Positions 31,096 to 49,624 of a stretch of 51,780 nt of DNA are shown in pieces (position 1 is the stretch's first letter; each line of letters begins with the position of its first letter). A program made the position numbers and the translations under genes. The notes below the pieces were generated by a model, which saw nothing but the letters and a program-made list of their open reading frames with translations, was not told the origin of the DNA and ran no database searches. Where the stretch lies: the sequence record DRR723986_8715; one strand, written 5' to 3'.

Positions 31096-31152
31096 TGTTA
31101 AAAAGTTGTTAAGCAATGTTAAATAGGGTAACATGATGTAAAAATAGTCGTC
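31096..31152 (+). promoter_or_regulatory. Three TGTTAA repeats followed by ECF-type promoter GGTAAC-N16-CGTC
   Basis: TGTTAA at 31096, 31107 and 31117; -35 at 31127-31132; -10 at 31149-31152; ATG at 31196. Confidence 0.6.
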
Positions 31153-31195
31153 TTAATTCTAAGAAACTATCAATCAATCAAAAAACAATCAAAAA

Positions 31196-33532: not shown

Positions 33533-33558
33533 TGTCACAATTAATATCGTTAGCTGTC
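33533..33558 (+). promoter_or_regulatory. Putative ECF-type promoter TGTCAC-N16-TGTC
   Basis: One mismatch in each element relative to TGTAAC/CGTC, same spacing. Confidence 0.4.
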
Positions 33559-33565
33559 TTTAATA

Positions 33566-33665
33566 GTATAAGAAATATTTAATAGCCTACAGAAATAGTT
33601 GATGGTTAGTGTTAATGTTTGCCTATTAAATAAAGAAAACCCGAAACGCCTTGTTTCGGATTTTT
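33566..33665 (+). ncRNA. Candidate sRNA 1 (or structured 3' UTR)
   Basis: 10-bp stem TATTTAATAG (33576-85) / CTATTAAATA (33623-32) enclosing GTTGATGGTTAGTGTT; terminator CCGAAAC/GTTTCGG plus T5; 5' end approximate. Confidence 0.45.
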
Positions 33666-33720
33666 GTTAAAATTTAGCTAAATGTGTTAAAGTTTGAAAT
33701 AAAACAGAAACTATTACGTC
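33665..33720 (+). promoter_or_regulatory. TGTTAA repeats followed by ECF-type promoter TGAAAT-N16-CGTC
   Basis: TGTTAA at 33665 and 33685; -35 at 33695-33700; -10 at 33717-33720; same layout as 31096-31152. Confidence 0.55.
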
Positions 33721-33726
33721 TATAGA

Positions 33727-33839
33727 TGAGAGATAAGTTTTAAGTAATAATGGTTATAAAATTTAGGTTTTATAATTTAGTGTTAGTTAAAGTTGGTTAA
33801 TAGCTGAAAAAGCTCAGACAATCAGTCTGGGCTTTTTTT
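33727..33839 (+). ncRNA. Candidate sRNA 2
   Basis: Lies between the ECF promoter and terminator AGCTCAGAC/GTCTGGGCT plus T tract (the G-U pair works on the + strand). Internal hairpin TTATAAAA/TTTTATAA and motif TTAGTTAAAGTTGGTTAAT; no credible ORF. Confidence 0.5.
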
Positions 33840-33858
33840 ATTCTATTTAACTATTTTC

Positions 33859-34857
33859 CTACCAATTCATAATTACACTTCCCCAAGTAAATCCGCTACC
33901 AAAGGCAGCCAATACAACAGTATCTCCATCTTTTATTTTACCTTCTTCCCAAGCTTCAGTTAGTGCTATAATTATAGAACCTGCAGTAGTGTTACCATAC
34001 TTCATAATGTTATTAAATACTTGGTCATCTCTTAAAGCAAATTTTTTCTGAATGTATTGTGCAATTCTAAGATTCGCCTGGTGAGGGATAAACATATCAA
34101 TATCATCCTTTGATAAATTATTGGCTTTTAATCCTTCCATAATTACCTCACTAAAACGCACTACAGCATTTTTAAAAACAAAAGTACCATCCATGTAAGG
34201 AAAGTAAGAATCATCATTCTCTGTTTTAGCAATATCCTCTACCCAGTGTCTTATACTAGGAGCTTTTACAATAAGTTTATCTGCATACTTACCTTGACTA
34301 TGCAGGTGAGACGATAAAATACCAGAATCGCTATCCGATCTAGACAAAACGCAAGCACCTGCTCCATCTCCAAAAATCACAGAAACACCACGACCTCTCG
34401 TCGTTTTGTCTAATCCATTATTATGATATTCCGCACCAATAACCAATACATTTTTATACATCCCTGTTTTTATATATTGATCTGCGACAGAAATTGCATA
34501 GACAAACCCTGAGCATTGATTTCTAATATCAATAGCTCCAATTGTAGGCATATCTAGCATTTCTTGTACTTGTACACCACAACCAGGAAAATAATAATCT
34601 GGAGTCATTGTGGCAAAAACAATAAAATCTATATCATCCTTTGTTAAGCCAGCACGTTCAATAGCTATTTTCGCAGCTTTTGAACCCATCGATGCTGATG
34701 TGTCCTCACTATCTTTTTTTACCCAACGGCGTTCTTTTATCCCTGTACGTTCTTGTATCCATTCGTCATTGGTATCCATCATTTTAGATAGATCATCATT
34801 AGTTACAACCTGTTCAGGTAAATATTTGCCTAGTCCTGTAATTTTCGATTTATACAT
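33859..34857 (-). CDS. fabH: 3-oxoacyl-ACP synthase III
   Basis: Catalytic NQCSGF, PHQAN and YGNT motifs plus AFGSGFTWG; start set at MYKSK. Confidence 0.93.
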   Translation of the reverse strand: MYKSKITGLGKYLPEQVVTNDDLSKMMDTNDEWIQERTGIKERRWVKKDSEDTSASMGSKAAKIAIERAGLTKDDIDFIVFATMTPDYYFPGCGVQVQEMLDMPTIGAIDIRNQCSGFVYAISVADQYIKTGMYKNVLVIGAEYHNNGLDKTTRGRGVSVIFGDGAGACVLSRSDSDSGILSSHLHSQGKYADKLIVKAPSIRHWVEDIAKTENDDSYFPYMDGTFVFKNAVVRFSEVIMEGLKANNLSKDDIDMFIPHQANLRIAQYIQKKFALRDDQVFNNIMKYGNTTAGSIIIALTEAWEEGKIKDGDTVVLAAFGSGFTWGSVIMNW

Positions 34858-34932
34858 ATTAAAAGGGGAAAATTTATGAATAACAAAAATAATCAATTAA
34901 AAACGAACTGATTTTAATCAGATTTGTAATTA

Positions 34933-34946
34933 TTATGCACGCATAA
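34933..34946. promoter_or_regulatory. Palindromic operator TTATGC-AC-GCATAA between divergent fabH and htpG
   Basis: Perfect 6-bp inverted repeat in the divergent intergenic region. Confidence 0.45.
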
Positions 34947-34952
34947 CAAATG

Positions 34953-34992
34953 TGTCAGTTTGTCATATTTTAAGTATTGGTATTTTATTTGA
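34953..34992 (+). promoter_or_regulatory. TGTCA-N3-TGTCA box and sigma-54-like promoter TGGTAT-N5-TTGA upstream of htpG
   Basis: TGTCAGTTTGTCA at 34953-34965; -24/-12-like element at 34978-34992. Confidence 0.45.
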
Positions 34993-35037
34993 CTATAATG
35001 AATTGATAATAATAAATTATACTAAAAACTAAATATC

Positions 35038-36948
35038 ATGACAAAAGGAAGCATTAATGTATCGGTAGAAAATATCTTTCCGTTAATTAAAAAGTTCTTA
35101 TACAGTGATCACGAAATATTTTTACGTGAACTTATCAGTAATGCAACTGATGCTACTCTAAAATTAAAGCACCTTACAAGCATAGGTGAATCCAAGACAG
35201 AATATGGCAATCCACAAATTGAAATAAAAATAGATAAAGACAACAAGAAACTTCATGTCATTGACCAAGGACTTGGTATGACAGCTGAAGAGGTTGAAAA
35301 GTACATCAACGAAGTTGCTTTTTCAGGTGCTGAAGAATTCTTAAACAAATACGAAGATTCTGCCAAAGATTCTGGTATTATTGGTCATTTTGGTCTTGGT
35401 TTTTATTCAGCTTTTATGGTGGCCGATAAAGTAGAAATCATTACTAAATCACATACAGATGCTCCTGCAGCTCACTGGACGTGTGATGGTTCACCTGAGT
35501 TCACCTTAGAAGAATCGGATAAAAAAGATAGAGGAACAGAAATAATTTTACACATTTCTGAAGGCGAAGAAGAATTTTTAGAAGAATCTCGTATCCGTGA
35601 GCTTTTAACTAAGTACAATAAGTTTATGCCTGTTCCTATTAAATTCGGAACAAAAGAAATAAAGGATCCAGATTTTACACCAAAAACAACAACTGATGCA
35701 GACGGCAAGGAAATTACTGAGCCGCACAAGCAAATCACAGTTGATGACATTATAAATAACCCAAATCCTGCATGGACAAAACAACCTGCAGATTTAAAAG
35801 ATGAAGACTATAGTTCTTTCTACAGAGAATTGTATCCTATGCAATTTGAAGAGCCATTATTCAATATTCATCTTAATGTAGATTATCCTTTCAACTTAAC
35901 GGGAATATTATATTTCCCTAAGATGACCAATGATCTTAACATTCAGAAGGATAAAATTCAGTTATATCAAAATCAAGTTTTTGTAACAGATAATGTTGAA
36001 GGTATTGTACCAGAATTCTTAACCATGTTGCGTGGTGTCATTGATTCGCCAGATATACCATTAAATGTTTCACGTTCGTATTTACAAGCTGATGGGGCGG
36101 TGAAGAAAATTTCATCTTACATTACACGCAAGGTTGCAGATAAGTTAAAGTCACTTTTTAATAATAATCGTGAAGATTTTGAAAAGAAATGGGATGACAT
36201 TAAAATCGTAATTGAATACGGGATGTTATCTGAAGAAAAATTCTTTGAAAAGGCAGATGCTTTTGGGCTCTACCCAACAGTAGATGGTAAATATTACACG
36301 TTTGAAGAGTTAACCAATGCTATTAAAGCTAAGCAAACAGACAAAGACGACAAAATGGTTATTCTTTATGCATCTAATAAGGATAAACAACATAGTTACA
36401 TTCAAGCTGCAAAAGACAAGGATTATGAAGTACTTTTATTAGACTCTCCAATTGTGAGCCATCTAATGCAAAAGCTAGAAACAACTAAAGAGAATATTTC
36501 TTTTGCACGTGTAGACGCTGATCATATTGACAATTTAATTAAGAAAGATGATACAGCTATTTCAAAATTATCTGATGAAGAAAAGACCAAGTTAGATGAG
36601 TTACTAAAAGAAGTAGTGCCTTCTGAAAAATTCATGGTACAGCTAGAAACTATGCATAGTAGCGCGTCACCATTTATGATTACACAGCCAGAATTCATGC
36701 GTCGTATGAAAGAAATGCAACAAACTGGCGGAGGCGGTATGTTTGGCATGGGTAATATGCCAGAAATGTACAACTTGGTAGTAAATACAAATCATGACTT
36801 AGTGAATGAAATTCTAAATACCAAAACACGTAAAAAACAAGAACGTTTAATTAATCAGAGTTTAGACTTAGCACGTTTATCTCAAGGCCTTTTAAAAGGT
36901 GAAGAGTTAACAAACTTCATTAAGCGTAGCTATGATATGATAAAGTAA
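35038..36948 (+). CDS. htpG: Molecular chaperone HtpG (Hsp90)
   Basis: LYSDHEIFLRELISNATDA, DQGLGMT, IGHFGLGFYSAF and DIPLNVSRS. Confidence 0.97.
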   Translation: MTKGSINVSVENIFPLIKKFLYSDHEIFLRELISNATDATLKLKHLTSIGESKTEYGNPQIEIKIDKDNKKLHVIDQGLGMTAEEVEKYINEVAFSGAEEFLNKYEDSAKDSGIIGHFGLGFYSAFMVADKVEIITKSHTDAPAAHWTCDGSPEFTLEESDKKDRGTEIILHISEGEEEFLEESRIRELLTKYNKFMPVPIKFGTKEIKDPDFTPKTTTDADGKEITEPHKQITVDDIINNPNPAWTKQPADLKDEDYSSFYRELYPMQFEEPLFNIHLNVDYPFNLTGILYFPKMTNDLNIQKDKIQLYQNQVFVTDNVEGIVPEFLTMLRGVIDSPDIPLNVSRSYLQADGAVKKISSYITRKVADKLKSLFNNNREDFEKKWDDIKIVIEYGMLSEEKFFEKADAFGLYPTVDGKYYTFEELTNAIKAKQTDKDDKMVILYASNKDKQHSYIQAAKDKDYEVLLLDSPIVSHLMQKLETTKENISFARVDADHIDNLIKKDDTAISKLSDEEKTKLDELLKEVVPSEKFMVQLETMHSSASPFMITQPEFMRRMKEMQQTGGGGMFGMGNMPEMYNLVVNTNHDLVNEILNTKTRKKQERLINQSLDLARLSQGLLKGEELTNFIKRSYDMIK

Positions 36949-36973
36949 GAATTCATCTTAATGAATTATTGAG

Positions 36974-37005
36974 AAAACCACCTTAAATCATTAAGGTGGT
37001 TTTTT
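36974..37005 (+). terminator. Intrinsic terminator of htpG
   Basis: AAAACCACCTTAA-ATCA-TTAAGGTGGTTTT plus T tract. Confidence 0.85.
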
Positions 37006-37089
37006 GTTAAAGCACAAATCTCTTAACATATGTAAACGACTCATTTCAAATATTTTACGTCTATTGTATAGACGATTAAATAGGTTATT

Positions 37090-37674
37090 TTGCGCTCAGA
37101 TAATCCCAAAATAAAAGACATCTTCAAAGACCTTGTTTTCGATGAATACGAAATAGAAATTATCACGTCTGTTTTTCATAAAGTCGAAGCAGAAAAGAGC
37201 ACCATATTATTACATCCAGGAGATTATGTTAACGAGCATTATTATATTTTAGATGGTTGTTTAAGAGCTTTTCATATTGATGAACATGGCAAAGAACATA
37301 CCGTACAATTTGGTATTAAAGATTGGTGGATTAGTGATTATACCGCTTTTTTTACTGGTGAAAAATCTATAATGACTATTGAGGTAATTCAAGATGCCAT
37401 TATTTACCGCATTAACGAAAAAGACAAAGAATACCTATATGCTCAAATACCTAAAATTGAGCATTTTTTTAGGGTAAAACTTGAAAAAGCTTTTGCAGCA
37501 TTCCAATCTAGAATTTTACGAAATTTATCACAAAATGCTACTGAACGTTATCTTAATTTTATTAAAGCCTATCCTAATATTGAAAAAGTAGTAAAAAACT
37601 ATCATATAGCCTCTTATTTAGGAATTACCACTGTTACGCTTAGTAGAATTAGAAGTGAACTTGCACAATCTTAG
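37090..37674 (+). CDS. Crp/Fnr family transcriptional regulator (start codon uncertain)
   Basis: cNMP-binding domain (YYILDGCLRAF..DEHGKEHTVQF) and HTH (IASYLGITTVTLSRIR). Confidence 0.88.
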   Translation: MRSDNPKIKDIFKDLVFDEYEIEIITSVFHKVEAEKSTILLHPGDYVNEHYYILDGCLRAFHIDEHGKEHTVQFGIKDWWISDYTAFFTGEKSIMTIEVIQDAIIYRINEKDKEYLYAQIPKIEHFFRVKLEKAFAAFQSRILRNLSQNATERYLNFIKAYPNIEKVVKNYHIASYLGITTVTLSRIRSELAQS

Positions 37675-37679
37675 TTTTA

Positions 37680-37723
37680 TTAACATACATTAATTTTTAT
37701 CTGACCTTTTAAAAATATATTTA
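37680..37723 (+). promoter_or_regulatory. Crp/Fnr-type box TTAACATACATTAA with -7-like TATATTTA
   Basis: Near-palindrome right after the crp gene; a similar box TTAACATATGTAAA lies at 37023-37036. Confidence 0.45.
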
Positions 37724-37771
37724 CTTCAACTAACAAAACTAACTCAAATAGTTACCTAAGAATTAATGGTT

Positions 37772-37806
37772 AAAAAGCACAAGTAATTTTACTTGTGCTT
37801 TTTTTA
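37772..37806 (+). terminator. Intrinsic terminator
   Basis: AAAAAGCACAAGTAA-TT-TTACTTGTGCTTTTT. Confidence 0.8.
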
Positions 37807-37832
37807 TAACTTTAGATTCTAAAGACTTAATA

Positions 37833-39008
37833 ATGATAAAGACTAATTCGCGGCGCTCATTTATTAAAAAAAGTGCCTTAGTAAGTATAGCTATACCAAT
37901 TTTAGGTACCCACCTCTTAAGCTGTGATTCTGAGCCAAAAAAACAAGGCGTTAAGTCTTCTAAAAATGGAACAAAATTAAAAATTCTAATCCTAGGTGGT
38001 ACCAGTTTTTTAGGACCACATCAAATTTCTTATGCGCTTTCTCGTGGCCATTCAGTTACCACTTTTACCAGAGGTAAAACTATACCAAGAATACATACCC
38101 AATTATTTGATAAAGTTGAACAATTAATTGGTGATAGAGAAAATAACCTTAAGGCATTAGAAAACAGAAAATGGGATGTGGTTATTGATAACTCTGGGCA
38201 CAAAGTAGAATGGACTAGAGCTACTGCAAATCTGTTAAAAGATAATGTAGAACTGTATATGTACACATCATCTACGGGAGTTTATTACCCTTATTTATCA
38301 AATAGCATTACTACAGATACTGAAGTCGCTCTAAAAATGCCTGAGAATCCTACAGAAGAAGAAAAGTATGAAATGGAATATGGTGTAATGAAAGCGAATT
38401 CTGAACTAGAGGCTATCAATGAATTCGGTAAAAATAGAACCACAATAATACGCCCTACTTATATGTTGGGACCAGGTGATCGTACAGATAGATTTGCGCA
38501 TTGGCCAGTGCGATTATCTAAAGGTGGTGAGGTTATGATTCCTGGAAAAACTGATGATACTGTACAATATATAGATGTGAGAGATATGGCTGAATGGTTT
38601 ATAAGATTGGCGGAAAATAAAATCGCTGGTACTTTTAATGGTGTTGGGCCTAAGAAAACCCAAACTATGCAACAGTTTATTAAAAGTGCAGGAGCATCAT
38701 TTGATGCTAAACATAATTTTGTGATGATTGATGATTATGATTTTTTAAAGAAAAACAACATTTATTATTCGATACCATGGATTATGGCAGATAAAACTCA
38801 CGTAGGATCCGCAAAAATCTCAAATACTAAGTCTATAAAAGAAGGATTGACATATAGACCATTAAAGGATACAATTATTGACACCTTAAACTGGTGGAAT
38901 TCTGATGCTGTTACAGAAGAGAGAAAATCTAATTTCAATACAGCATTAGCAACAATGACTACCAATGAACAAAAAATAATAGAAGATTGGAAGACAAAAA
39001 GAGACTAA
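37833..39008 (+). CDS. NAD-dependent epimerase/dehydratase family protein with Tat (lipo)signal
   Basis: SRRSFIK twin-arginine, LLSC lipobox, ILGGTSFLG Rossmann motif and YGVMK (YxxxK). Confidence 0.85.
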   Translation: MIKTNSRRSFIKKSALVSIAIPILGTHLLSCDSEPKKQGVKSSKNGTKLKILILGGTSFLGPHQISYALSRGHSVTTFTRGKTIPRIHTQLFDKVEQLIGDRENNLKALENRKWDVVIDNSGHKVEWTRATANLLKDNVELYMYTSSTGVYYPYLSNSITTDTEVALKMPENPTEEEKYEMEYGVMKANSELEAINEFGKNRTTIIRPTYMLGPGDRTDRFAHWPVRLSKGGEVMIPGKTDDTVQYIDVRDMAEWFIRLAENKIAGTFNGVGPKKTQTMQQFIKSAGASFDAKHNFVMIDDYDFLKKNNIYYSIPWIMADKTHVGSAKISNTKSIKEGLTYRPLKDTIIDTLNWWNSDAVTEERKSNFNTALATMTTNEQKIIEDWKTKRD

Positions 39009-39937
39009 TAAAATCTCAACTACATCCTAGAAGTCAGCACAGAGAACGTTATATATTTGAAGACCTTATAAAAAGCTCACCAGAATTATCCAATTACGTG
39101 GCACCTAACAAATATGGTGATGATTCGGTAGATTTCTTTAACCCAAAGGCCGTATTGGCTTTAAATAAAGCACTTCTATTTCATCACTATGGTTTAGAAT
39201 ATTGGGATATTCCGAAGAATTATTTGTGTCCACCAATTCCTGGGCGTGCAGATTACATACATAATATCGCAGATCTTTTAGAAGAAACTGGGAATGAAAT
39301 TCCAAAGGGAAATAAAATTAAAGGACTTGATATTGGAGTTGGAGCAAGTTGCATTTATCCCATAATTGGAAATTATGAATATGGTTGGTCATTTAATGCT
39401 AGCGATATTAATGAAAATGCAATTGCTTCTGCCAAAGCCATACAAGAAAGAAACTCAAGGCTTTTGAATAATTTAGACATCCGACATCAAGGACAATCTA
39501 ATTCATTTTTTAAGGGTATAATAAAACCAGAAGAAAAAGTTGATTTCACCTTGTGCAACCCACCTTTTCATTCTTCAGGAGAAGAGGCACAAAAAGCTAG
39601 TCTCAGAAAGTTAAAAAACCTAAAAGGAAAGCAACCAAGCAAACAGGTTCTAAATTTTGGTGGCCAACAAAATGAGTTATGGACCAAAGGTGGTGAAGCA
39701 CGCTTTGTGAAAGACATGATTTATGAAAGTCGACATTTTAGACAGCAATGCTTATGGTTTACAAGTTTAATATCAAAAGAAACGACTTTAAAACCAACTT
39801 ATAAGATATTAGAGAAAGTAAAAGCAATTGACGTGAAAACCATTGAAATGGGTCAAGGCCAGAAAATAAGCCGATTTATAGCATGGACATTTTTAACAGT
39901 GCAAGAACAAAAAGCTTGGGTTAATGAGCGTTGGTAA
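38987..39937 (+). CDS. rlmF: 23S rRNA (adenine(1618)-N6)-methyltransferase
   Basis: LHPR, LCPPIPGRADYIH, DIGVGASCIYP, CNPPF and MGQGQK. Confidence 0.93.
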   Translation: MEDKKRLIKSQLHPRSQHRERYIFEDLIKSSPELSNYVAPNKYGDDSVDFFNPKAVLALNKALLFHHYGLEYWDIPKNYLCPPIPGRADYIHNIADLLEETGNEIPKGNKIKGLDIGVGASCIYPIIGNYEYGWSFNASDINENAIASAKAIQERNSRLLNNLDIRHQGQSNSFFKGIIKPEEKVDFTLCNPPFHSSGEEAQKASLRKLKNLKGKQPSKQVLNFGGQQNELWTKGGEARFVKDMIYESRHFRQQCLWFTSLISKETTLKPTYKILEKVKAIDVKTIEMGQGQKISRFIAWTFLTVQEQKAWVNERW

Positions 39938-39971
39938 ATTATTCTTATAACTTTGCCTCAAAATACAACTA

Positions 39972-41207
39972 ATGTCATTTAAAGACCTAAAACTTATAAA
40001 GCCACTTTTAAAAGCTATTGACGCATCTGGCTACAGCGAACCAACATTAGTACAACAAAGAGCTATTCCTTTAGTTTTAGATAAAAAAGATATTATCGTA
40101 TCTGCACAAACAGGCACTGGTAAAACAGCTGCCTTTGCCTTACCCATTTTACAAAATCTGTTTGACAAACAAGATGCACCTAAACGAGGAAAGAAAATTA
40201 GAGCACTTATTATTAGCCCAACTCGAGAGTTGGCTTCTCAGATTCAACAGAACTTTAAAACTTATGCGCAATTATCAAACCTAAGATCCTTTGTAGTTTT
40301 TGGCGGCACATCTATAGAACCTCAAATAGATGTTTTAAAAAAAGGAATCGATATTTTAGTGGCTACACCTGGTCGTTTACTAGACTTGCATAAACAAGAT
40401 TATATTAACCTAGACTATGTTGAAACATTGGTTTTGGATGAAGCCGATTTAATGTTGGCAATGGGTTTTATTGACGATGTAAAAAAGATCGAACGCCTTT
40501 GCCCACAAGAAAAACAGACGCTCTTATTCTCCGCCACAATACCTTATAAAATAGAACAGCTTGCCAACGGTATATTAAAAAACCCTGAACGTATTGATGT
40601 AACTCCTACCCACTCTATAGCCAAGGATGTAAGTCAAGTACTATATTATGTGCCTAAACGCAATAAAATTGAGTTGTGCCTACACCTATTGAGAAATACC
40701 ATTAAAGGAAACGTACTTATTTTTAGGCGTACCAAATTTGGCGTTAATAAGTTAGAAGAAACCTTACTTAAAAATGGATATAAGGTAGATAGTATTCATG
40801 GTGATAAAAACCAGAGTGACAGACAAACAGCGCTTAACAAATTTAAAAATGGCTACGTCAAAGTTTTAATTGCTACTGATGTTGCTGCACGTGGTATTGA
40901 TATTAACGAACTCGATAATGTTTTAAATTTTGATATGCCCAACCAGGCGGAAACCTATGTTCATAGAATTGGTAGAACAGGTAGAGCTGGCAATTTAGGT
41001 AAAGCTTATGCGATGTGTTCTGCTGACGAAAAAAGTTATATAAAAACCATTGAGCAGTTTATAAATGTTCAAATACCTATTGAGACTGAACATCCTTATC
41101 CTTTAGATCCTAAAGCAAAACCTATCGTTCATAAAAAGAAAGGTAGTAAGTATAAAAAAGGGCGTAAAAGTGTAGCTTCTAAGAAAAAGAAAAAGCGTTG
41201 GTATTAA
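39972..41207 (+). CDS. DEAD-box RNA helicase (RhlE-like)
   Basis: AQTGTGKT, PTRELA, DEAD, SAT and HRIGRTGRAG motifs with a basic tail; TAACTTTG promoter at 39948-39955. Confidence 0.93.
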   Translation: MSFKDLKLIKPLLKAIDASGYSEPTLVQQRAIPLVLDKKDIIVSAQTGTGKTAAFALPILQNLFDKQDAPKRGKKIRALIISPTRELASQIQQNFKTYAQLSNLRSFVVFGGTSIEPQIDVLKKGIDILVATPGRLLDLHKQDYINLDYVETLVLDEADLMLAMGFIDDVKKIERLCPQEKQTLLFSATIPYKIEQLANGILKNPERIDVTPTHSIAKDVSQVLYYVPKRNKIELCLHLLRNTIKGNVLIFRRTKFGVNKLEETLLKNGYKVDSIHGDKNQSDRQTALNKFKNGYVKVLIATDVAARGIDINELDNVLNFDMPNQAETYVHRIGRTGRAGNLGKAYAMCSADEKSYIKTIEQFINVQIPIETEHPYPLDPKAKPIVHKKKGSKYKKGRKSVASKKKKKRWY

Positions 41208-41216
41208 AGCATTTAT

Positions 41217-41609
41217 TTTATTAATACAATTTTTAATTAGTGTACTTTTTTCTTCACATATAATATTATCAAGTGCGTTATCTATAGAATCTAATTTATT
41301 AAAAGTAAACTCATCTATAGCTACATTATTTAAATGCTTTTTATTCTTTTTAATGTTATCCAAGCAAGTATTATAAGCAACTCTATATATCCAAGTAGAA
41401 AATTTAGAATCACCTTTAAACTTATCTAAAGACTTAAATACTTTAATAAATGTATCTTATGCAACCTCTTCCGCCTCTTCTTTATGCTTTAGCATTCTTA
41501 AGGCTAAAGTGTAAACCAAGTCCTTGTAGCGATCTACGAGTTTTGCATAAGCTCTAGTATCGCCATTATTAATAGCTTGTATTAATATGTGTTCTTCGTT
41601 GATGGTCAT
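41217..41609 (-). pseudogene. ECF sigma-70 factor pseudogene (nonsense codon plus loss of region 4)
   Basis: Reads MTINEEHILIQAINNGDTRAYAKLVDRYKDLVYTLALRMLKHKEEAEEVA*DTFIKVFKSLDKFKGDSKFSTWIYRVAYNTCLD...IKNCINK. TAA is at 41457-41459, and the frame then runs into the helicase 3' end. Confidence 0.9.
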
Positions 41610-41620
41610 TTTGTTATTAA

Positions 41621-41647
41621 GACGACAGCAAGTTTTAATTGGTTACA
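41621..41647 (-). promoter_or_regulatory. ECF promoter TGTAAC-N17-CGTC for the sigma gene
   Basis: -10 element ends 11 nt upstream of the sigma ATG, the usual autoregulatory position. Confidence 0.7.
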
Positions 41648-41678
41648 GAAATGATTAAAATAATTTTTTGCTAAAAAT

Positions 41679-41705
41679 TGTAACCTTAATCAAAATGGAA
41701 TCGTC
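41679..41705 (+). promoter_or_regulatory. ECF promoter TGTAAC-N17-CGTC for the DUF6249 gene
   Basis: Identical -35, -10 and spacing to the divergent promoter. Confidence 0.7.
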
Positions 41706-41751
41706 ATAGGTTATGAAACAAATAAAATTAATCAATTAAAAAACAAACATT

Positions 41752-42096
41752 ATGGATGAAGAAATTTTAATACCAATAAGCATGTTTGCCGCAATATTTG
41801 GCATCGTATACTTATACTTCTCAACAAGAAATAAAGAGCGATTAGCACTTATTAAAAAAGGTGCTGATGCCAGTATATTTAATATCGGAAAGCGATCTGG
41901 ATCGTCTTGGAAAGTTGTTGTTTTAGATATCTCTTTTCTTTTAATGGGTATTGGTCTAGGTATATTTATTGCTCATTTATTAGAAACTTACTCTGCTTTA
42001 GATGATGATGCCGTATATCCTGCAATGATATTCTTAATGGCTGGTTTAGGACTATACGTAGGCTATACTCAGACTAAAAAAGCATTAGACAGCTAA
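41752..42096 (+). CDS. DUF6249 family membrane protein
   Basis: FGIVYLYFSTRNKERLALIKKGADASIF plus TM helices; divergent from an ECF sigma gene. Confidence 0.75.
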   Translation: MDEEILIPISMFAAIFGIVYLYFSTRNKERLALIKKGADASIFNIGKRSGSSWKVVVLDISFLLMGIGLGIFIAHLLETYSALDDDAVYPAMIFLMAGLGLYVGYTQTKKALDS

Positions 42097-42125
42097 CACT
42101 TAAAGCTAATCAATCAAAAAATAAG

Positions 42126-42154
42126 AACGTCTCATGAAAATGAGACGTTTTTTT
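42126..42154 (+). terminator. Intrinsic terminator
   Basis: AACGTCTCAT-GAAA-ATGAGACGTT plus T tract. Confidence 0.85.
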
Positions 42155-42228
42155 ATGGCATAAATTATGTAGCTTTAGAGTGTCTTGCTGAATTAATTTC
42201 AGCATCTTTAATTTTGCAAATAGTTGAC

Positions 42229-43200
42229 ATGTACAAATACCTAATTCTATTTTTGTTTAGCCAGTTGAGCTTGGCACAAATTACTATTACAGATAGTATT
42301 ACAAAGTATCCTGTAAGCTATGCTACCATATCGTTTGGAAATGGTAATGGTCTTTTTGCTGATGATGAAGGTAAATTTGTGTTTACAAAAAAAATATATC
42401 CAGATATTGATTCTCTATTTATATCTGCTTTAGGTTTTAAGGATTTAAAAGTATCTACAGTAAATCTGCCAAATCAACTATTTATGAAGCCGCAGGCCGA
42501 TGAACTAGATGAAGTAATTATTGGCGTTAAATTAGATAGAAAGTTTAAAGAAGAAACTCTAAAACCATTCCTTGATGACGACTATTACAACTGTTGGTTA
42601 CCTACCATAGAATCGGAAATTGCCGTTTATTTCCCTAAAAACACTAATAAGGATCAAAAACTATCAGAAATAATTTTCCCTATTGCTCTAGAGTCTACAG
42701 ATTGGAAAAAACGAAAACGCACTAATAGTGAAAAGAAGAAGTTTTCTACTCTATTTAAAGTAAAATTCTATTCAAATAATAATGGTAGTCCTGGAAAGGT
42801 ATTAACTTATGAAACCATAGTCTTTAGAGCAACAGAAAAAGATGGTGATGCGTATACTTTAAATGTAGATCCCTATGATTTATATATACCTGAAAATGGT
42901 TTTTTTGTATCACTTCAGGTTATGGGTTATACCGATAAATCAGGAAAACTATTACCTAATAAAAAGTATAAGGAAATTAAATCTAAAACAGGCACAGTAA
43001 AAATCCCTACTAACTTTAGACCATTACTACCTTTTACCAACAAAATTGAATCTAAAAACACATTTATAAAGCGTGTATTTATTAGTGGTAATAATTGGGT
43101 GAAATTTGACAAAGGCAATGGGTTAAAATCGAGCTTATTAAAAAAAGACTTATTTAATTATAGTATTGGTATAACTTACAAAACCTACAAGAATGACTGA
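42229..43200 (+). CDS. Secreted protein with N-terminal carboxypeptidase-regulatory-like domain
   Basis: Signal peptide then ITDSITKYPVSYATI...ISALGF...LDEVII. Start moved to the ATG because the TTG overlaps a TAATTTTG promoter box. Confidence 0.7.
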   Translation: MYKYLILFLFSQLSLAQITITDSITKYPVSYATISFGNGNGLFADDEGKFVFTKKIYPDIDSLFISALGFKDLKVSTVNLPNQLFMKPQADELDEVIIGVKLDRKFKEETLKPFLDDDYYNCWLPTIESEIAVYFPKNTNKDQKLSEIIFPIALESTDWKKRKRTNSEKKKFSTLFKVKFYSNNNGSPGKVLTYETIVFRATEKDGDAYTLNVDPYDLYIPENGFFVSLQVMGYTDKSGKLLPNKKYKEIKSKTGTVKIPTNFRPLLPFTNKIESKNTFIKRVFISGNNWVKFDKGNGLKSSLLKKDLFNYSIGITYKTYKND

Positions 43201-43552
43201 ACCACTTGGTCTTTATATTATGGCCACAATCTACATTTTCGCAGGCCTTATGCATTTCATAAAACCAAAAATATATATGCGTGTTATGCCTAGCTATTTA
43301 CCAAATCATAAAGCCTTAGTTTATCTTAGTGGTATAGCTGAAATTGCATTAGGTATTGGTCTTTTTACACCTAGTTTAAAAGTTATTTCAATTTATGGCA
43401 TTTTAGCAATGCTGCTGGTATTTTTAGTTACAGTTCACTTTTATATGCTTACAAGCAAGAAAGCTGCTGCAGGAATACCAAAGTGGATATTAATACTTCG
43501 TATACCATTACAGTTTGGTTTAATGTATTGGGCTTGGATGTATTTGAAATAA
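43193..43552 (+). CDS. DoxX-like membrane protein
   Basis: YIFAGLMHFIKP...LVYLSGIAEIALG...RIPLQ. Confidence 0.8.
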   Translation: MTEPLGLYIMATIYIFAGLMHFIKPKIYMRVMPSYLPNHKALVYLSGIAEIALGIGLFTPSLKVISIYGILAMLLVFLVTVHFYMLTSKKAAAGIPKWILILRIPLQFGLMYWAWMYLK

Positions 43553-43565
43553 AAAGAAATATATC

Positions 43566-44744
43566 TTGAAAACTCAAACTGATAACAATACCAATGCCTG
43601 GATTTTACCAATAATTATTATTTCGCAGTTTTGTTGTACCTCCCTTTGGTTTGCAGGCAACTCAATAATAAATGATTTAATTTCTACATTTAACTTAAAT
43701 GTTCAATCCCTTGGCTATGTAAGTTCTTCCGTACAATTTGGTTTTATTATTGGCACATTAGTTTTTGCTTTTCTTACAATTAGTGACCGCTTTTCGTCTT
43801 CAAAAATATTTTTTATCTCAGCCGTTTTAGGAGCATTCTTTAATCTTGGAATACTATATCCATATAATTCTATTACTACACTATTGCTTTTTAGATTTTT
43901 TACTGGATTTTGTTTGGCAGGTATTTACCCAGTAGGTATGAAAATAGCAGCTGATTATTTTGAAAAAGGACTAGGCAAGTCATTGAGTTTTTTAGTCGGC
44001 GCACTAGTTCTAGGTACAGCACTACCCTACCTTATTAAAGCGTATCAATTTAGTTTTAATTGGGAAATTGTTATTTGGATAACTTCAATATTAGCGACAT
44101 TAGGTGGACTCTTAATTTTATTATTTGTTCCAGATGGACCTTACCAAAAACTCGCTCAAAGATTTGATGCTTCAAAAATTTTGAAAGTATTTAAAATGCC
44201 TACTTTTAGATCAGCAGCATTTGGATATTTCGGCCATATGTGGGAACTATATGCCTTTTGGACCTTTATTCCTATTATACTTCAATCATATACATCCAGC
44301 CACAATTCTCAATTCAATATTTATTTACTTTCTTTTATTATCATAGCCTCAGGGACAATATCTTGTGTTTTAGGTGGCTTCATCTCAAGCAAATATGGAG
44401 TTAAGAAAACAGCAAAAGTATCCTTAAGTATCTCTGGTTGTTGTTGTTTACTTTCCCCTCTGTTCTTTATGATAAACTCTACGACATTATTTATTATATT
44501 TTTAATTGTTTGGGGAATGGCAGTCATCTCAGATTCGCCATTGTTCTCTACACTAGTAGCTCAAAATAGCGATGAAGAGGCAAAAGGTACCGCTTTAACC
44601 ATAGTTAATTGTATTGGTTTTGGTATTACAATACTGAGCATCCAAATAATTAATTATTTGATATCTAACGTAGAATCTACTCAATATGTCTTTTTAATAC
44701 TTGCTATTGGTCCTCTTGCAGGATTAATGGCTTTAAGAAAATAA
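43566..44744 (+). CDS. MFS transporter
   Basis: About 12 TM helices; SLWFAGN, LAGIYPVGMK and GYFGHMWELYAFW. Confidence 0.88.
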   Translation: MKTQTDNNTNAWILPIIIISQFCCTSLWFAGNSIINDLISTFNLNVQSLGYVSSSVQFGFIIGTLVFAFLTISDRFSSSKIFFISAVLGAFFNLGILYPYNSITTLLLFRFFTGFCLAGIYPVGMKIAADYFEKGLGKSLSFLVGALVLGTALPYLIKAYQFSFNWEIVIWITSILATLGGLLILLFVPDGPYQKLAQRFDASKILKVFKMPTFRSAAFGYFGHMWELYAFWTFIPIILQSYTSSHNSQFNIYLLSFIIIASGTISCVLGGFISSKYGVKKTAKVSLSISGCCCLLSPLFFMINSTTLFIIFLIVWGMAVISDSPLFSTLVAQNSDEEAKGTALTIVNCIGFGITILSIQIINYLISNVESTQYVFLILAIGPLAGLMALRK

Positions 44745-44748
44745 TTAA

Positions 44749-45429
44749 TTACTCTACCTCAAAATCAAAATAAGTTTTAGGAAAAGGTTCCCAACGTAAA
44801 GTAAAATGCCACCATTCTTTTGGGTAATTTCTAAAATTATGCTTCAGCATAACAGTTTGTAGCAATTGCCTATTTTTCTTCTGATCATCTGTTATATCAT
44901 TGTAGCTTACCCAAGACTCTTCGCCAAAAAAATCATAAGGGCTACCCATATCTAACGGCTCACCTGTTTCTCCATTAGTAATTGTTAGATCTAAAGTACT
45001 GCCTCTACTATGGCCAGATCTTGAGGCAATGTATTCTTCTTTAAACAAATTCCTCTTCTCAACATTAGGATAAAATTGAGATTTATTAATAGTGTCGTTT
45101 AAATCTTTTGCCCATATTATAAAATGATTAACAGCGCGCTGTGGTCTGTAACCATCATACACTTTTAAACAAAGATTTTGTTTTTGTAACTCGTCTTGCA
45201 CCAATTTCAGCTTTTCTGTAGCTTCTTTTGTTAAAATCAATCGGTTGGCTTTGTAACCATCAATAGTATCACCAACAAAATTATTAGTACTATAATAACG
45301 TAATTCTACGTCTATATCAGCAATCACCGATTTTACATAAACAAAACCTTCTGGCAAATCTTTGGTTTGATTAAACCCAAAGGCTAATAAACTAAATAAT
45401 AGTAGGTATGTGAAAGTTTTATTATTCAT
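44749..45429 (-). CDS. D-alanyl-D-alanine dipeptidase (M15, VanX/DdpX-like)
   Basis: YDGYRPQ, SGHSRGSTLD and EWWHF. Confidence 0.92.
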   Translation of the reverse strand: MNNKTFTYLLLFSLLAFGFNQTKDLPEGFVYVKSVIADIDVELRYYSTNNFVGDTIDGYKANRLILTKEATEKLKLVQDELQKQNLCLKVYDGYRPQRAVNHFIIWAKDLNDTINKSQFYPNVEKRNLFKEEYIASRSGHSRGSTLDLTITNGETGEPLDMGSPYDFFGEESWVSYNDITDDQKKNRQLLQTVMLKHNFRNYPKEWWHFTLRWEPFPKTYFDFEVE

Positions 45430-45460
45430 CTCTAAGCACTAATTTAGACAAAAAATAGCT

Positions 45461-46066
45461 ATGGATTTGTTTTTTAAAGAGAAACAACATTTTGACTTAC
45501 CGAATGCCGAATTAGTTTACTACCCCAATTTTTTTAGTAATAAAGAAGCAAACAAATTCTATGATGTAATTGAGTCTAAAACCAATTGGCAACACGATGA
45601 TATAACAGTATTTGGCAAAACCTATAAGCAACCACGACTAACTGCTTTATATGGTGATACTAATAAACCTTATGGCTATTCAAATATAGTAATGCATCCA
45701 AGTCCATTTACCTCAACATTAAAGCATATAAAGACAAAAGTGGAACGAGTTTGTGAACATAAGTTTAATACATTGCTTATTAATTTATATAGAGATGGCA
45801 ATGATAGTAACGGTTGGCATGCAGATAATGAAAAAGAACTTGGTAAAAACCCAGTAATAGCTTCAGTTAGTTTTGGTGAAGCAAGACCATTTCATTTTAA
45901 ACATAGAACTATAAAAGAGCAACGACATAAATTAATATTAGAGCATGGGAGTTTACTATTAATGAAAGGCGAAATGCAGCACTTCTGGTTGCATCAAATT
46001 GCAAAAACTAAAAAGAAAATTTCACCAAGAATAAACCTTACTTTCAGGAAACTGGTAAGGTTATAA
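45461..46066 (+). CDS. AlkB-like 2OG-Fe(II) dioxygenase
   Basis: NLYRDGNDSNGWHADNE, WLHQIAK and RINLTFR. Confidence 0.9.
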   Translation: MDLFFKEKQHFDLPNAELVYYPNFFSNKEANKFYDVIESKTNWQHDDITVFGKTYKQPRLTALYGDTNKPYGYSNIVMHPSPFTSTLKHIKTKVERVCEHKFNTLLINLYRDGNDSNGWHADNEKELGKNPVIASVSFGEARPFHFKHRTIKEQRHKLILEHGSLLLMKGEMQHFWLHQIAKTKKKISPRINLTFRKLVRL

Positions 46067-46072
46067 AAACAA

Positions 46073-46101
46073 AAAACCGGGTTCCCTCAAACCCGGTTTT
46101 T
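46073..46101. terminator. Bidirectional intrinsic terminator after the alkB-like gene
   Basis: AAAAACCGGGTT...AACCCGGTTTTT. Confidence 0.8.
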
Positions 46102-46439
46102 CTAATTTGCTTTTTTTATTATGTTAGTAGATTTAGGGTCTCTAAGTCAACCTGACATAATGCAAATATTAATTAATTAATCCATTGAACTAAAAACTAA
46201 ATTTTAGGACACTTCAGATATATAATTCCATTTCAATTACATCGCTAAAAAACACTATTAATCGATGTAATACATATTTTTTTAACATATTAAGATAAAA
46301 ACATGCATTTCATCGATGAAATACACAGCGAATAAATAAGAATATTATGTATGGAACATACTAAAATGGAATAAAATTTGATTCAAATTATACGTTTACT
46401 AATGATATCATTTAATTTTACCACTATAAAATAGTGCTT

Positions 46440-47363
46440 ATGAAACGAATTTTTATTGCTCTAATACTTTTATTCTCTATTACAAGTTTTGCCCAAGAAG
46501 TTACTTTTACAGAAGAAGAAATATCCGTTTCTAAGTGGATAGATGGCACATTATTAAATCCAAATGATAGTGATAAACCTAATTTAGCAATAATTATTGC
46601 TGGCTCTGGACCTACGAATAGAAATGGTAATCAGAATTTTTTAAATAATAATTCTTTAAAAAAATTAGCTGAAAGTTTAACTAATAATGGTATTGCCACT
46701 TTCAGATACGACAAGCGTATAGTTAAACAAATACGACAAGGAAATGTAGATAAGAATATGATGTTTGACGATTTTGTTGATGACGGAAAAGATGTCATTA
46801 ACTACTTTAAAACATTAAATACTTATAATAGAATTTACGTTATTGGCCATAGTCAAGGCAGTTTGGTTGGTATGATTGCAGCAAGGGATTTAGCAGATGG
46901 ATTTATTTCTTTAGCTGGTGCAGGCAATAATATTGGTGATGTTATTGTAGAGCAGGTAACCAATATGGCACCTCAACTTGGTGAAGAAGCCCAGAGAATT
47001 GTCAATCAGTTAAAAAAGGGAAAAACTACAAAGGACTATCCAGCAGCTCTCGCATCTGTATTTAATACGGATGTTCAAGAATTTATGATTAATTGGATGC
47101 AGTACAATCCTACTGAAATAATTTCAGAGTTAAAAATGCCCATTTTACTTATTAATGGCACTAAAGATCTACAGGTCTCAGAAACTGAGGCAAAACTATT
47201 AAAAGAAGCTAATGAAAATGCTGAACTGGTTCTTGTTGAAAATATGAATCATGTACTCTTTGAAATAGAAGGTGATGATCTGGAAAATTCAAAATCTTAT
47301 AATGAATCCTTTAGGCCAATTTCTACTCAATTAATAAGTAGCATAACAGAATTTATTAAATAA
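46440..47363 (+). CDS. Secreted alpha/beta hydrolase
   Basis: Signal peptide, AGSGPTNRNG, GHSQG nucleophile elbow, GTKDLQV and MNHVL. Confidence 0.88.
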   Translation: MKRIFIALILLFSITSFAQEVTFTEEEISVSKWIDGTLLNPNDSDKPNLAIIIAGSGPTNRNGNQNFLNNNSLKKLAESLTNNGIATFRYDKRIVKQIRQGNVDKNMMFDDFVDDGKDVINYFKTLNTYNRIYVIGHSQGSLVGMIAARDLADGFISLAGAGNNIGDVIVEQVTNMAPQLGEEAQRIVNQLKKGKTTKDYPAALASVFNTDVQEFMINWMQYNPTEIISELKMPILLINGTKDLQVSETEAKLLKEANENAELVLVENMNHVLFEIEGDDLENSKSYNESFRPISTQLISSITEFIK

Positions 47364-47390
47364 CTGTTCTACAGAACAGATTGTTAAACT

Positions 47391-47499
47391 AAAAAAGCAT
47401 CTTCAATGAAGATGCTTTTTTACTAACTAACCAACCAAATGTAATGTTACGATTTTGTAGTGTGTTACTAGTCTGTAACTATCGTAATAACCATTACAC
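47391..47499 (-). ncRNA. Candidate sigma-54-dependent sRNA 3
   Basis: Nested hairpin (TGTAATG/CATTACA, TTACGAT/ATCGTAA, GTTAC/GTAAC), then TTGGTTGGTTAGTTAGT, then bidirectional terminator at 47391-47421. Confidence 0.6.
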
Positions 47500-47508
47500 T
47501 TTTAATAT

Positions 47509-47524
47509 AGCAAACGATGTGCCA
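47509..47524 (-). promoter_or_regulatory. Sigma-54 promoter TGGCAC-ATCGT-TTGCT
   Basis: Full match to the -24/-12 consensus TGGCAC-N5-TTGCW; the predicted +1 falls at the 5' end of the hairpin. Confidence 0.75.
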
Positions 47525-47587: not shown

Positions 47588-47628
47588 TTATATCTTTATG
47601 ATATCATTTTAATATCATATTGATTTTA
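47588..47628 (+). promoter_or_regulatory. TGATATCA-like repeats with 11-bp period, probable Arc/RHH operator
   Basis: TTATATCT at 47588, TGATATCA at 47599, TAATATCA at 47610 and TGATTTTA at 47621, upstream of an operon ending in an Arc-family gene. Confidence 0.55.
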
Positions 47629-47658
47629 AATGATTATTAACCAATTAAATTTTAAAAG

Positions 47659-48519
47659 ATGAAAGAAGAAAAAATCATAATTCCTGCAAATGGCTACTTT
47701 ATGCTATTTATATTTTTAGTATTGCTTTTTGGAAGTATAGCTGCAATGATTGCGTTAGAAACTCCATGGCCAATTATTACAATTATCCTTGCCTTAGTAA
47801 TGGCATTTGGTTTTGTTATGGTTCAACCAAACGGATCACGCGTATTATTGTTATTCGGAAAATATGTAGGAACTGTAAAAAAGAATGGGTTTTATTGGGT
47901 GAATCCATTTTACACCAAAAAGAAAATATCTCTAAGGGCTAGCAACTTTGATAGTGAGCGACTAAAAGTAAATGACAAATTAGGTAATCCTGTAATGATA
48001 AGTACCATATTAGTATGGCGTGTACAAAATACCTACAAAGCAGCTTTTGATGTGGATAACTACGAAAATTTTGTTCGAGTACAAACAGATGCTGCTGTAC
48101 GTAAACTAGCAAGTATGTATCCTTATGACAATTTTGCTGATGAAGGACATGATGAAGACATCACACTAAGATCTAGTGTTAACGAAGTAAGTAATGCTTT
48201 AGAAAAAGAAATAGACGAGCGTTTATCTATTGCTGGTATTGAAGTTTTAGAAGCACGTATTGGATATCTAGCCTATGCGCAAGAAATTGCAAACGCTATG
48301 CTAAAGCGTCAGCAAGCCACGGCTATTGTTGCAGCAAGACATAAAATTGTAGAAGGAGCTGTAAGCATGGTAGAAATGGCTATTGACGAACTTAATAAAA
48401 AAGATGTTGTCGATTTAGATGAAGAACGCAAAGCGGCCATGGTGAGTAACCTCATGGTAGTATTATGCGGTGATAAAGATGCATCTCCTGTATTAAACAC
48501 AGGTACATTAAGTCATTAA
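47659..48519 (+). CDS. SPFH/band 7 domain membrane protein
   Basis: N-terminal TM helices, LFGKYVGT, KVNDKLGNP, LAYAQEIANAMLKRQQA and MVSNLMVVLC. Confidence 0.92.
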   Translation: MKEEKIIIPANGYFMLFIFLVLLFGSIAAMIALETPWPIITIILALVMAFGFVMVQPNGSRVLLLFGKYVGTVKKNGFYWVNPFYTKKKISLRASNFDSERLKVNDKLGNPVMISTILVWRVQNTYKAAFDVDNYENFVRVQTDAAVRKLASMYPYDNFADEGHDEDITLRSSVNEVSNALEKEIDERLSIAGIEVLEARIGYLAYAQEIANAMLKRQQATAIVAARHKIVEGAVSMVEMAIDELNKKDVVDLDEERKAAMVSNLMVVLCGDKDASPVLNTGTLSH

Positions 48520-49559: not shown

Positions 49560-49624
49560 TCAGAAATGGTCGCTTTTTTTAGTGCTTAATTTTTGTATTT
49601 TGCGCTTGCAAAACTAAATCAACT

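Follow-up and report, generated by a model that had tools for sequence, protein, structure and literature searches.

Three short non-coding units were analysed in a 51,780-nt stretch of DNA from sequence record DRR723986_8715, referred to below at its full length as the window. Units 1 (33566-33666) and 2 (33729-33840) lie on the plus strand and unit 3 (47391-47499) on the minus strand, and we regard it as highly probable that all three are real RNA genes. They are interpreted as independent small RNA (sRNA) genes of three families widespread in Flavobacteriaceae. It is proposed, with moderate confidence, that their products act in trans by base pairing with leaders that lack a Shine-Dalgarno sequence.

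A first-pass annotation of the window, made from the sequence alone, had proposed these units as sRNAs driven by alternative sigma factors and sharing a UGGUUA(G/A)U seed. On re-reading, all the motifs and coordinates quoted there were correct, and the layout it described (promoter-like motif, hairpin, G/U-rich stretch, terminator) was present in each of the three units. The predicted promoters also appear to be of alternative-sigma type, namely sigma-54-type for unit 3 and extracytoplasmic function (ECF)-type for units 1 and 2, the motif of unit 1 being weak and degenerate.

Conservation and structure of the three units

The RlmF-like protein encoded at 38987-39937 was 70-81% identical to its counterparts in about 50 Winogradskyella genomes, and the window was therefore assigned to Winogradskyella or a close relative. 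Across Winogradskyella species, the two intergenic regions holding the units showed 72-89% DNA identity, compared with 56-93% identity for the flanking proteins; the intergenic DNA is conserved to the same degree as the flanking genes. The 331-nt gap with units 1 and 2 was 89% and 87% identical to the corresponding regions of the related loci L008 and L001, respectively, and identity was still 74-76% in L051, L055, L038 and L043, where the protein of the adjoining outer-membrane beta-barrel gene was 56-61% identical. The 295-nt gap with unit 3 showed 72-82% identity over about 270 nt in ten species and partial conservation in eight further species.

Covariance models of unit 3 (R1), unit 2 (R2) and unit 1 (R3) gave matches in 68, 39 and 81 of 151 Flavobacteriaceae genomes, respectively. 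The z-scores of the folds were -4.06 for unit 3, -5.36 for unit 2 and -3.73 for unit 1.

Covariation was evaluated by comparing the fraction of pair cells that were paired with the fraction obtained when the partners were slid. For unit 3 (19 sequences), 90.5% of cells were paired, compared with 25-49% after sliding; for unit 1 (23 sequences), the values were 98.2% and 37-52%. For unit 2 (41 aligned copies), they were 93.7% and 36-63%, obtained from a model-guided alignment, which leans towards the structure of the model; when MAFFT and RNAalifold were applied to mixed-genus unit 2 sequences, the stems were not recovered. Pairs changing on both sides numbered 9, 18 and 16 in units 3, 2 and 1, respectively, and in each case none of 500 shuffles reached the observed values. 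The conservation in related genomes and the stem covariation, both named as checks in the first-pass annotation, were thus borne out for all three families.

Unit 3 and its predicted sigma-54-type promoter

Unit 3 consists of three nested stems, an internal loop with the conserved word ACUACAAA, a single-stranded seed and a terminator (47391-47421). In an alignment of 19 Winogradskyella copies, the seed UUGGUUGGUUAGUUAG (47423-47438, minus strand), located directly before the terminator, was identical in all 19. It is the most conserved part of the unit and is unpaired in the folds, and ACUACAAA represents a second conserved unpaired word. The terminator varied in sequence among the same copies, with its pairing kept.

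Upstream of the unit lies a candidate sigma-54-type -24/-12 promoter, TGGCACATCGTTTGC (47510-47524, minus strand), of the form TGGCAC-N5-TTGC, which has the -24 GG and -12 TTG(C) elements of sigma-54-dependent sRNA promoters. It is the sole match to TGGCAY-N5-TTGY in the 51.8-kb window. In the 19-copy alignment, the motif reads TTGGCA(C/T)-N5-TTG(C/T/A), with TTGGCA and TTG invariant in 19 of 19 copies. Of 27 unit 3 copies from other genomes, 24 carried TGGCA[CT]-N5-TTG[CTA] at a distance of 47-81 nt upstream from the seed, and just 26 matches to this pattern occurred in the 177,272 nt searched.

Within 19 Winogradskyella loci, the R1 model detected the syntenic copy only, plus one truncated copy, and four of five Winogradskyella genomes contained a single copy per genome. 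In the relatives of unit 3 from other genomes, the body differs, and the seed (kept or nearly so) and the terminator remain; a common second type carries GAGUGGUUAC, with a second UGGUUA, in a hairpin loop. One locus (L095; G094:C1:245206-245681) contained three unit 3-like copies in tandem within about 480 nt, and genome G129 had two copies. The unit 3 family can therefore be multicopy.

The possibility that unit 3 encodes a small peptide was rejected. Its ATG frame is closed after 1-2 codons in two loci (L041 and L053), and the RNA is therefore considered non-coding.

A conserved TGATATC palindrome upstream of unit 3 was also considered as an enhancer site. Among loci from other genomes, it was present in 8 of 8 with an adjacent SPFH gene and in 0 of 16 without one, so its presence follows the SPFH gene instead of the sRNA, and the candidate was dropped. 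A strongly conserved palindromic block, ATATCTTTATGATATCATTTTAATATCATATTGAT (47590-47624, plus strand), lies between unit 3 and the SPFH gene; because the palindrome pattern follows SPFH adjacency, this block is probably a promoter or operator of the SPFH gene and not an enhancer of the sRNA. No upstream enhancer site for an activator of unit 3 was identified.

Unit 2 and its predicted ECF-type promoter

Unit 2 comprises a conserved 5' motif, UAAGUUUUAAGUAAU, a variable A/U hairpin (33752-33777), the conserved segment AGUGUUAGUUAAAGUUGGUUAAUAGCUG (33780-33807) and a terminator (33806-33838). The conserved segment of the family, AGUGUUAGUU-AAGUUGGUUAAUAGCUG, lies between the covarying A/U hairpin and the terminator. 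Within the family, GUGUUAGUU and UUAAUAG are invariant. In a shorter subtype, comprising about a quarter of the 41 aligned copies as counted by eye, UUGGUUAAU is replaced by UUGAUUAAU.

The putative ECF-type promoter, TGAAAT-N16-CGTCTA (33695-33722, plus strand), combines a -35 element and a CGT-containing -10 element at fixed spacing, as in ECF-dependent sRNA promoters, and gave no matches in 100 shuffles. In nine of nine Winogradskyella sequences, AATAAA and CGTCT were invariant and the spacer was variable, a pattern read as the signature of an ECF-type promoter. Of 20 unit 2 matches from other genomes, 18 had CGTCT(A) and, 16 nt before it, a TGnAAT -35 element, the background for CGTCT being 0.09 per 150 nt.

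An exact-pattern scan of 401 genomes of the family detected unit 2 in 16 genomes, compared with 9 for the reversed control, and on inspection 14 of the 16 showed the full order of promoter, body, seed and terminator. A long-range helix between the 5' motif and GUGUUAGUUAA, present in the fold of the window copy, was rejected: in the 41 sequences, it was paired in 74.4% of cells, and 479 of 500 shuffles were as good.

Unit 1 and the outer-membrane-protein gene

Unit 1 contains a hairpin (33576-33632) with the invariant loop AAAUAGUUGAUGGUUAGUGUUAAUG (33593-33617) and a terminator (33635-33665). The loop word AUAGUUGAUGGUUAGUGUUA is invariant while the stem covaries; for example, TTAATAG/CTATTAA is replaced by CTAATAG/CTATTAG or TCAATAG/CTATTGA.

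In the window, unit 1 lies in the 3' untranslated region (3' UTR) of an outer-membrane beta-barrel gene (31196-33527, plus strand; Pfam OMP_b-brl_3, CarboxypepD_reg and Plug). In loci from other genomes, the C-terminus of the same barrel protein ended just upstream of unit 1 in 14 of 16 cases, and unit 1 is therefore regarded as primarily the 3' UTR of that gene. The position between stop codon and terminator is that of 3' UTR-derived sRNAs.

A possible weak ECF-like promoter of unit 1, TGTCAC-N17-GTCTTT, was noted at 33533-33561 (plus strand). Both of its motifs, and the distance between them, are retained in L008, L001, L051 and the window, where the spacer is variable; L055, L038 and L043 lack them. 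In the former four, the degenerate ECF motif TGTCAC-N17-G(T/A)CT(T/A)T sits on a 45-nt insert. In several other genomes, a full GNAAY-N16-CGTCT motif occurs at the position of unit 1, about 190 nt upstream of the unit 2 promoter.

A putative ECF-type promoter, GTAAC-N16-CGTCT (31128-31153, plus strand), also lies before the barrel gene and is conserved in L008 and L043. The pattern GNAAY-N16-CGTCT has exactly two matches in the window, at the barrel gene and at unit 2, compared with 0.41 expected. Many genomes retain units 1 and 2 in tandem, and because the same ECF motif precedes the barrel gene and unit 2, the barrel gene and units 1 and 2 look like a single cluster under ECF control. Each of the two ECF-type promoters has GTTAA(A) repeats ahead of it, two or three at intervals of about 10 nt (31096-31126 and 33666-33691). 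These repeats are conserved in relatives and may represent an activator-binding site or an UP-like element.

In the window, the barrel gene is split into two overlapping open reading frames in different frames (31196-32881 and 32766-33527). In the closest relative, L008, it forms a single frame with about 117 more bases, corresponding to about 40 residues missing from the window. The gene is thus either disrupted or affected by an assembly error, with units 1 and 2 intact behind it.

Shared G/U-rich words and their copies on mRNA tails

The conserved G/U-rich stretches are GTTGATGGTTAGT within 33598-33614 in unit 1, TTAGTTAAAGTTGGTTAAT at 33783-33801 in unit 2 and TTGGTTGGTTAGTTAGT at 47438-47422 on the minus strand in unit 3. 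GUUAGU is common to the conserved segments of all three units. GUUGAU and GUGUUA are common to units 1 and 2, where their order differs, and UUGGUUA and GUUAGUUA are common to units 2 and 3. The shared seed of the first-pass annotation therefore held as a set of related G/U-rich words but not as a fixed UGGUUA(G/A)U, as UGGUUA is replaced by UUGAUUAAU in part of the unit 2 family.

By composition arithmetic, about six occurrences of TGGTTA[GA]T would be expected on both strands of the window, and nine were found. A genome-wide terminator scan was performed on three Winogradskyella relatives (G001, G003 and G004). In these genomes, TGGTTGGTTA was not in overall excess, with 26, 18 and 37 occurrences compared with 32, 28 and 33 for the reversed word. 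As judged by eye, 4 of the 26 sites in G001 directly preceded a terminator hairpin, and all four recurred in G003 and G004, compared with 0 of 31 reversed-word sites in G001.

These four sites are unit 3 itself and the 3' UTRs of three protein genes carrying UGGUUGGUUA. The distance from the stop codon to the UGGUUGGUUA copy is 4 nt for a protein whose tail is Lys/Arg-rich, 15 nt for a Ser/Arg-rich protein and 32 nt for a ClpB-like protein ending in a ClpB_D2-small domain. The position of these copies between stop codon and terminator is again that of 3' UTR-derived sRNAs, and they may be 3' UTR-derived relatives of unit 3. The corresponding loci are L172-L175, L180/L182 and L181/L183 (genomes G001, G003, G004 and G005). 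A repeated element starting with TGGTTGGTTATAATGAAGCACAACGG was also noted at one to three copies per Winogradskyella genome (G001, G003 and G004), partly on very short contigs.

Complementarity between the seeds and mRNA leaders

Pairing between each unit and a leader in the window had been proposed. The word TTGGTTAATA of unit 2 (33793-33802) is the exact reverse complement of TATTAACCAA (47635-47644, plus strand) in the SPFH leader, its proposed target, where the word is conserved in most Winogradskyella copies. Likewise, ATAGTTGAT of unit 1 (33595-33603) is the reverse complement of ATCAACTAT (49618-49626), and AATCAATCAA is present in the leader of the gene at 31196.

Leader statistics drew on 858 predicted starts, taken from the window and from 55 Winogradskyella loci. 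TAACCA occurred 52 times at positions -30 to -3 of starts and 8 times further upstream, its reverse complement 3 times; AACCAA occurred 68 times at -30 to -3, compared with 11 times further upstream. The reverse complements of seed-complementary words were nearly absent. Flavobacterial leaders are generically A/C-rich.

Several results weigh against trans-acting pairing with these leaders. The complements in the window are exact, but shuffled seeds do as well: of 300 shuffles each, 132, 37 and 122 attained the longest perfect complements of 9, 10 and 9 nt, respectively. RNAduplex comparison of the three seeds with the window's 43 predicted initiation regions gave best energies that 54%, 73% and 13% of shuffled seeds equalled, and the SPFH leader was absent from the six best unit 2 duplexes. 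The A/C-rich words complementary to the seeds are enriched in leaders, as had been claimed, but reversed control words are equally enriched (ACCAAT, 41 vs. 4 upstream; AATCAA, 127 vs. 17 upstream), and the complementarity between seeds and leaders therefore follows from composition. The 858 starts, moreover, come from syntenic loci, are not independent and rely on crude start-codon calls.

Searches in five genomes gave similar values for seeds and controls, with 49 vs. 46 sites complementary to the unit 3 seed (16-mer, at most two mismatches) and 35 vs. 37 sites complementary to the unit 1 loop (18-mer, at most three mismatches). No specific target could be named from the window or from these searches. 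The invariant stretches of 16-25 nt exceed the length of most seeds, and UGGUUA itself varies within the unit 2 family. On the same side we count the metatranscriptome comparison, which is uninformative either way: two contig sets held 7% and 5% of sampled window words (in addition to one probable DNA set), and the contig pieces listed covered parts of fabH, htpG and SPFH and none of units 1-3. One recurrent match with long complementarity was set aside as a target, being a paralogous seed on the opposite strand.

Genes adjoining the units

Units 1 and 2 lie between the barrel gene and the convergent fabH (33859-34896, minus strand). The gap with unit 3 is bordered by an alpha/beta-hydrolase gene (46434-47363, plus strand) and by an SPFH/Band 7 gene (47659-48519, plus strand), from which unit 3 is divergent. 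Units 2 and 3 each share a bidirectional terminator with a neighbouring gene, namely fabH (minus strand) and the hydrolase gene (plus strand), respectively.

In the window, units 2 and 3 are 13.6 kb apart. In other genomes (G009, G085, G068, G099, G028, G098 and others), they are mostly on one contig, 7-33 kb apart. This sharing of a contig probably reflects the general synteny of the region.

Comparison with known RNA families and regulons

The comparison with Rfam 15 suggested in the first-pass annotation gave no match at the gathering threshold over the whole window, and sub-threshold matches only. The best of these was BTnc231 (RF04180), a Bacteroides sRNA, which matched unit 3 with 25.5 bits (E = 0.0029) against a threshold of 80.4. 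FopS gave no Rfam match, GibS scored 19.7 bits against a threshold of 115, and MicC-type scores were 18-25 bits against a threshold of 90. In the related loci, the only family found was the unrelated Flavo-1 RNA (RF01705, 82.7 bits), at L167:62-144. No published description of the three families was found, Rfp36 and Rfp11 of Flavobacterium psychrophilum being comparable by description only.

In F. psychrophilum, the sigma-54 motif SM4 is reported to precede groESL, lon, dnaK, grpE-dnaJ, htpG, skp, clpB and the putative sRNA Rfp36, and the ECF-type CGT-box motif SM6 to precede two Band 7 genes, type IX secretion genes and the putative sRNA Rfp11 (PMC9723704). Rfp11 is described there as strongly folded and conserved in other species, and the portion of that text available to us reports no function or seed for either RNA. 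Judged by the same portion, Rfp36 and Rfp11 resemble units 3 and 2 in belonging to the same bacterial family and in being sRNAs downstream of sigma-54 and ECF CGT-box motifs, respectively; this likeness is one of description. Because the sigma-54 motif of F. psychrophilum drives chaperone and envelope-stress genes together with an sRNA, and the CGT-box motif another sRNA, a link of the present RNAs to stress is plausible by analogy. More generally, an enrichment of sigma-54 promoters upstream of genes for chaperones and Clp-type proteases is reported for Flavobacteriia, small RNAs being unmentioned in the accessible part of that report (PMC12316311).

In the window, TGGTATTTTATTTGA (34978-34992, plus strand), located 45 nt upstream of htpG, has the sigma-54 -24/-12 geometry with C-to-T changes. 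Of 27 Winogradskyella loci, 23 had a near-identical 15-mer, spacer included, ahead of htpG, and in 19 it was identical. This fits the sigma-54 control of htpG described for F. psychrophilum in the available part of PMC9723704.

Outside the family sample, R1 matched in 0 of 5 outgroup genomes, including one named Flavobacterium genome, and the outgroup R3 match and all but one of the R2 matches look like terminators only; neither result is evidence of absence. In a locus of Flavobacterium macrobrachii (L167:1501-1608), a weak R2 match was observed; this distant relative combines a GGAGUGGUUUCC hairpin with the hybrid seed UUGGUUGGUUAAUAGC ahead of a terminator, and the TATCTTTG preceding it resembles a sigma-A -7 box.

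In enterobacteria, MicA, RybB and MicL are sigma-E-dependent sRNAs that form the non-coding arm of the extracytoplasmic stress response and repress outer-membrane protein synthesis. They depend on Hfq and carry 5' seeds directed against Shine-Dalgarno regions, and MicL originates inside or downstream of a protein gene. Unit 1 may resemble MicL in arising behind a protein gene, whereas the sigma factors and promoter motifs differ. Sigma-54-dependent sRNAs are likewise known, namely Qrr, GlmY and CrcZ. These share with the present case either a -24/-12 promoter or, as in GlnZ, which is reported as an sRNA from the glnA 3' UTR (PMC9731577, consulted in part), release from the 3' UTR of a sigma-54-dependent mRNA. 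The seed copy in the 3' UTR of the clpB-like gene would parallel GlnZ. In contrast, all four occur in other phyla, have other seeds and targets, and use Hfq-dependent or protein-sequestering mechanisms.

The closest worked example is that of FopS and GibS. In the accessible sections of the source (PMC11697453), the FopS sRNAs of Bacteroides thetaiotaomicron are described as sharing one seed and blocking the translation-initiation regions of susC. As far as those sections go, the likeness consists in the same phylum, several short sRNAs, one of them 3' UTR-derived, and a common conserved single-stranded seed; also recorded there are a seed next to the terminator, pairing with the initiation regions of mRNAs for SusC-like outer-membrane proteins and a response to membrane stress. 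The differences, within the same limits, are that FopS has 5'-end seeds and canonical sigma-A promoters, whereas the present seeds are found in a loop or just ahead of the terminator, with predicted promoters of sigma-54 or ECF type.

Discussion

sRNAs forming the non-coding arm of a stress sigma regulon are a well-known kind. What is new here is the presence of sigma-54- and ECF-type promoters for sRNAs in flavobacteria, a common G/U-rich seed that precedes the terminator or occupies a loop, and the reuse of this seed on mRNA 3' tails.

To our knowledge, these bacteria (Bacteroidota) are without Hfq and do not use Shine-Dalgarno pairing. In the mechanism proposed, the RNAs would be made when the sigma-54 proteostasis and envelope regulon and an ECF regulon switch on. 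Their G/U-rich seeds would pair in trans, G-U wobble included, with translation-initiation regions that are poor in G and rich in A/C and would serve as ribosome landing sites in Bacteroidota lacking Shine-Dalgarno sequences, and through wobble one G/U-rich seed could fit AACCAA, AAUCAA or AACUAA. Such pairing would block initiation on a set of mRNAs, probably those for envelope proteins, and unit 1 and the copies on mRNA tails would be released as 3' UTR-derived sRNAs. Whether the outcome is the envelope-stress target network or the protein-sponge role named in the first-pass annotation, it is something that we infer.

The main rival to pairing in trans holds that the G/U words (GUUAGU, UGGUUA and GUUGAU) are sites for an RNA-binding protein, for instance one of the RRM-1 type of Bacteroidota, so that the RNAs titrate the protein, or that word and terminator together form a handle for a chaperone and the real seeds lie elsewhere in the RNA bodies. 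This explanation, which we judge possible but rather improbable, would account for the permuted order of the same short words in units 1 and 2, the second UGGUUA in the hairpin loop of many unit 3 relatives, the fixed place of the word directly before terminators, also on three mRNAs, the invariant stretches longer than typical seeds and the further conserved unpaired word of unit 3. The reported binding of FopS and GibS by RbpB in Bacteroides, seen in the consulted portion of PMC11697453, points in the same direction, although no binding motif for RbpB was found in that portion. Against it, a candidate protein partner is not known, the word is not kept as a simple repeat with fixed spacing, and the identity of the 16-nt unit 3 seed across genera suits multi-target pairing equally well. 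A role in cis at RNA 3' ends, where the G/U stretch and hairpin would tune the termination, stability or decay of the upstream transcript (that of the outer-membrane protein, the clpB-like gene or others), is considered unlikely. The location of unit 1 within a few dozen bases of the outer-membrane protein stop codon in most loci, the UGGUUGGUUA copies 4-32 nt past stop codons and directly before the terminators of three genes, and the terminators that units 2 and 3 have in common with convergent genes all agree with such a role. It would account for unit 1 and the mRNA tails, but units 2 and 3 do not fit, because they have their own conserved promoters and no co-oriented upstream gene feeding them; even in unit 1, the invariant loop lies 40 nt from the terminator inside a separate covarying hairpin, and in some genomes the unit has an ECF-type promoter of its own.

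It would also be conceivable that motif and layout arose by chance in AT-rich intergenic DNA beside ordinary terminators. The 8-mer is not enriched in the window, nor is TGGTTGGTTA enriched genome-wide, and two of the terminators double as those of neighbouring genes, as expected under such an explanation. Conservation at the level of genus and family, covariation, promoter motifs with variable spacers and hundreds of model matches speak against it, and the comparative data exclude it; we give it hardly any credence.

A broader form of the trans-acting interpretation can be formulated, in which two stress sigma regulons, one of sigma-54 and one of an ECF factor with an outer-membrane protein gene, emit sRNAs and mRNA tails with a common "anti-leader" seed, amounting to a broad translational throttle peculiar to the phylum. 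We consider this doubtful. If true, the seed of the throttle would recognise the ribosome landing pad lacking a Shine-Dalgarno sequence itself, and not a few specific mRNAs.

As independent sRNA genes, the three units represent RNA families each found in a quarter to half of the genomes sampled from the family. As their promoters, structures and seeds are clear, they offer a direct handle on the non-coding arm of the sigma-54 heat-shock-like regulon of flavobacteria and on that of an ECF regulon, as well as on how an sRNA would choose its targets where there is no Shine-Dalgarno sequence to mask.

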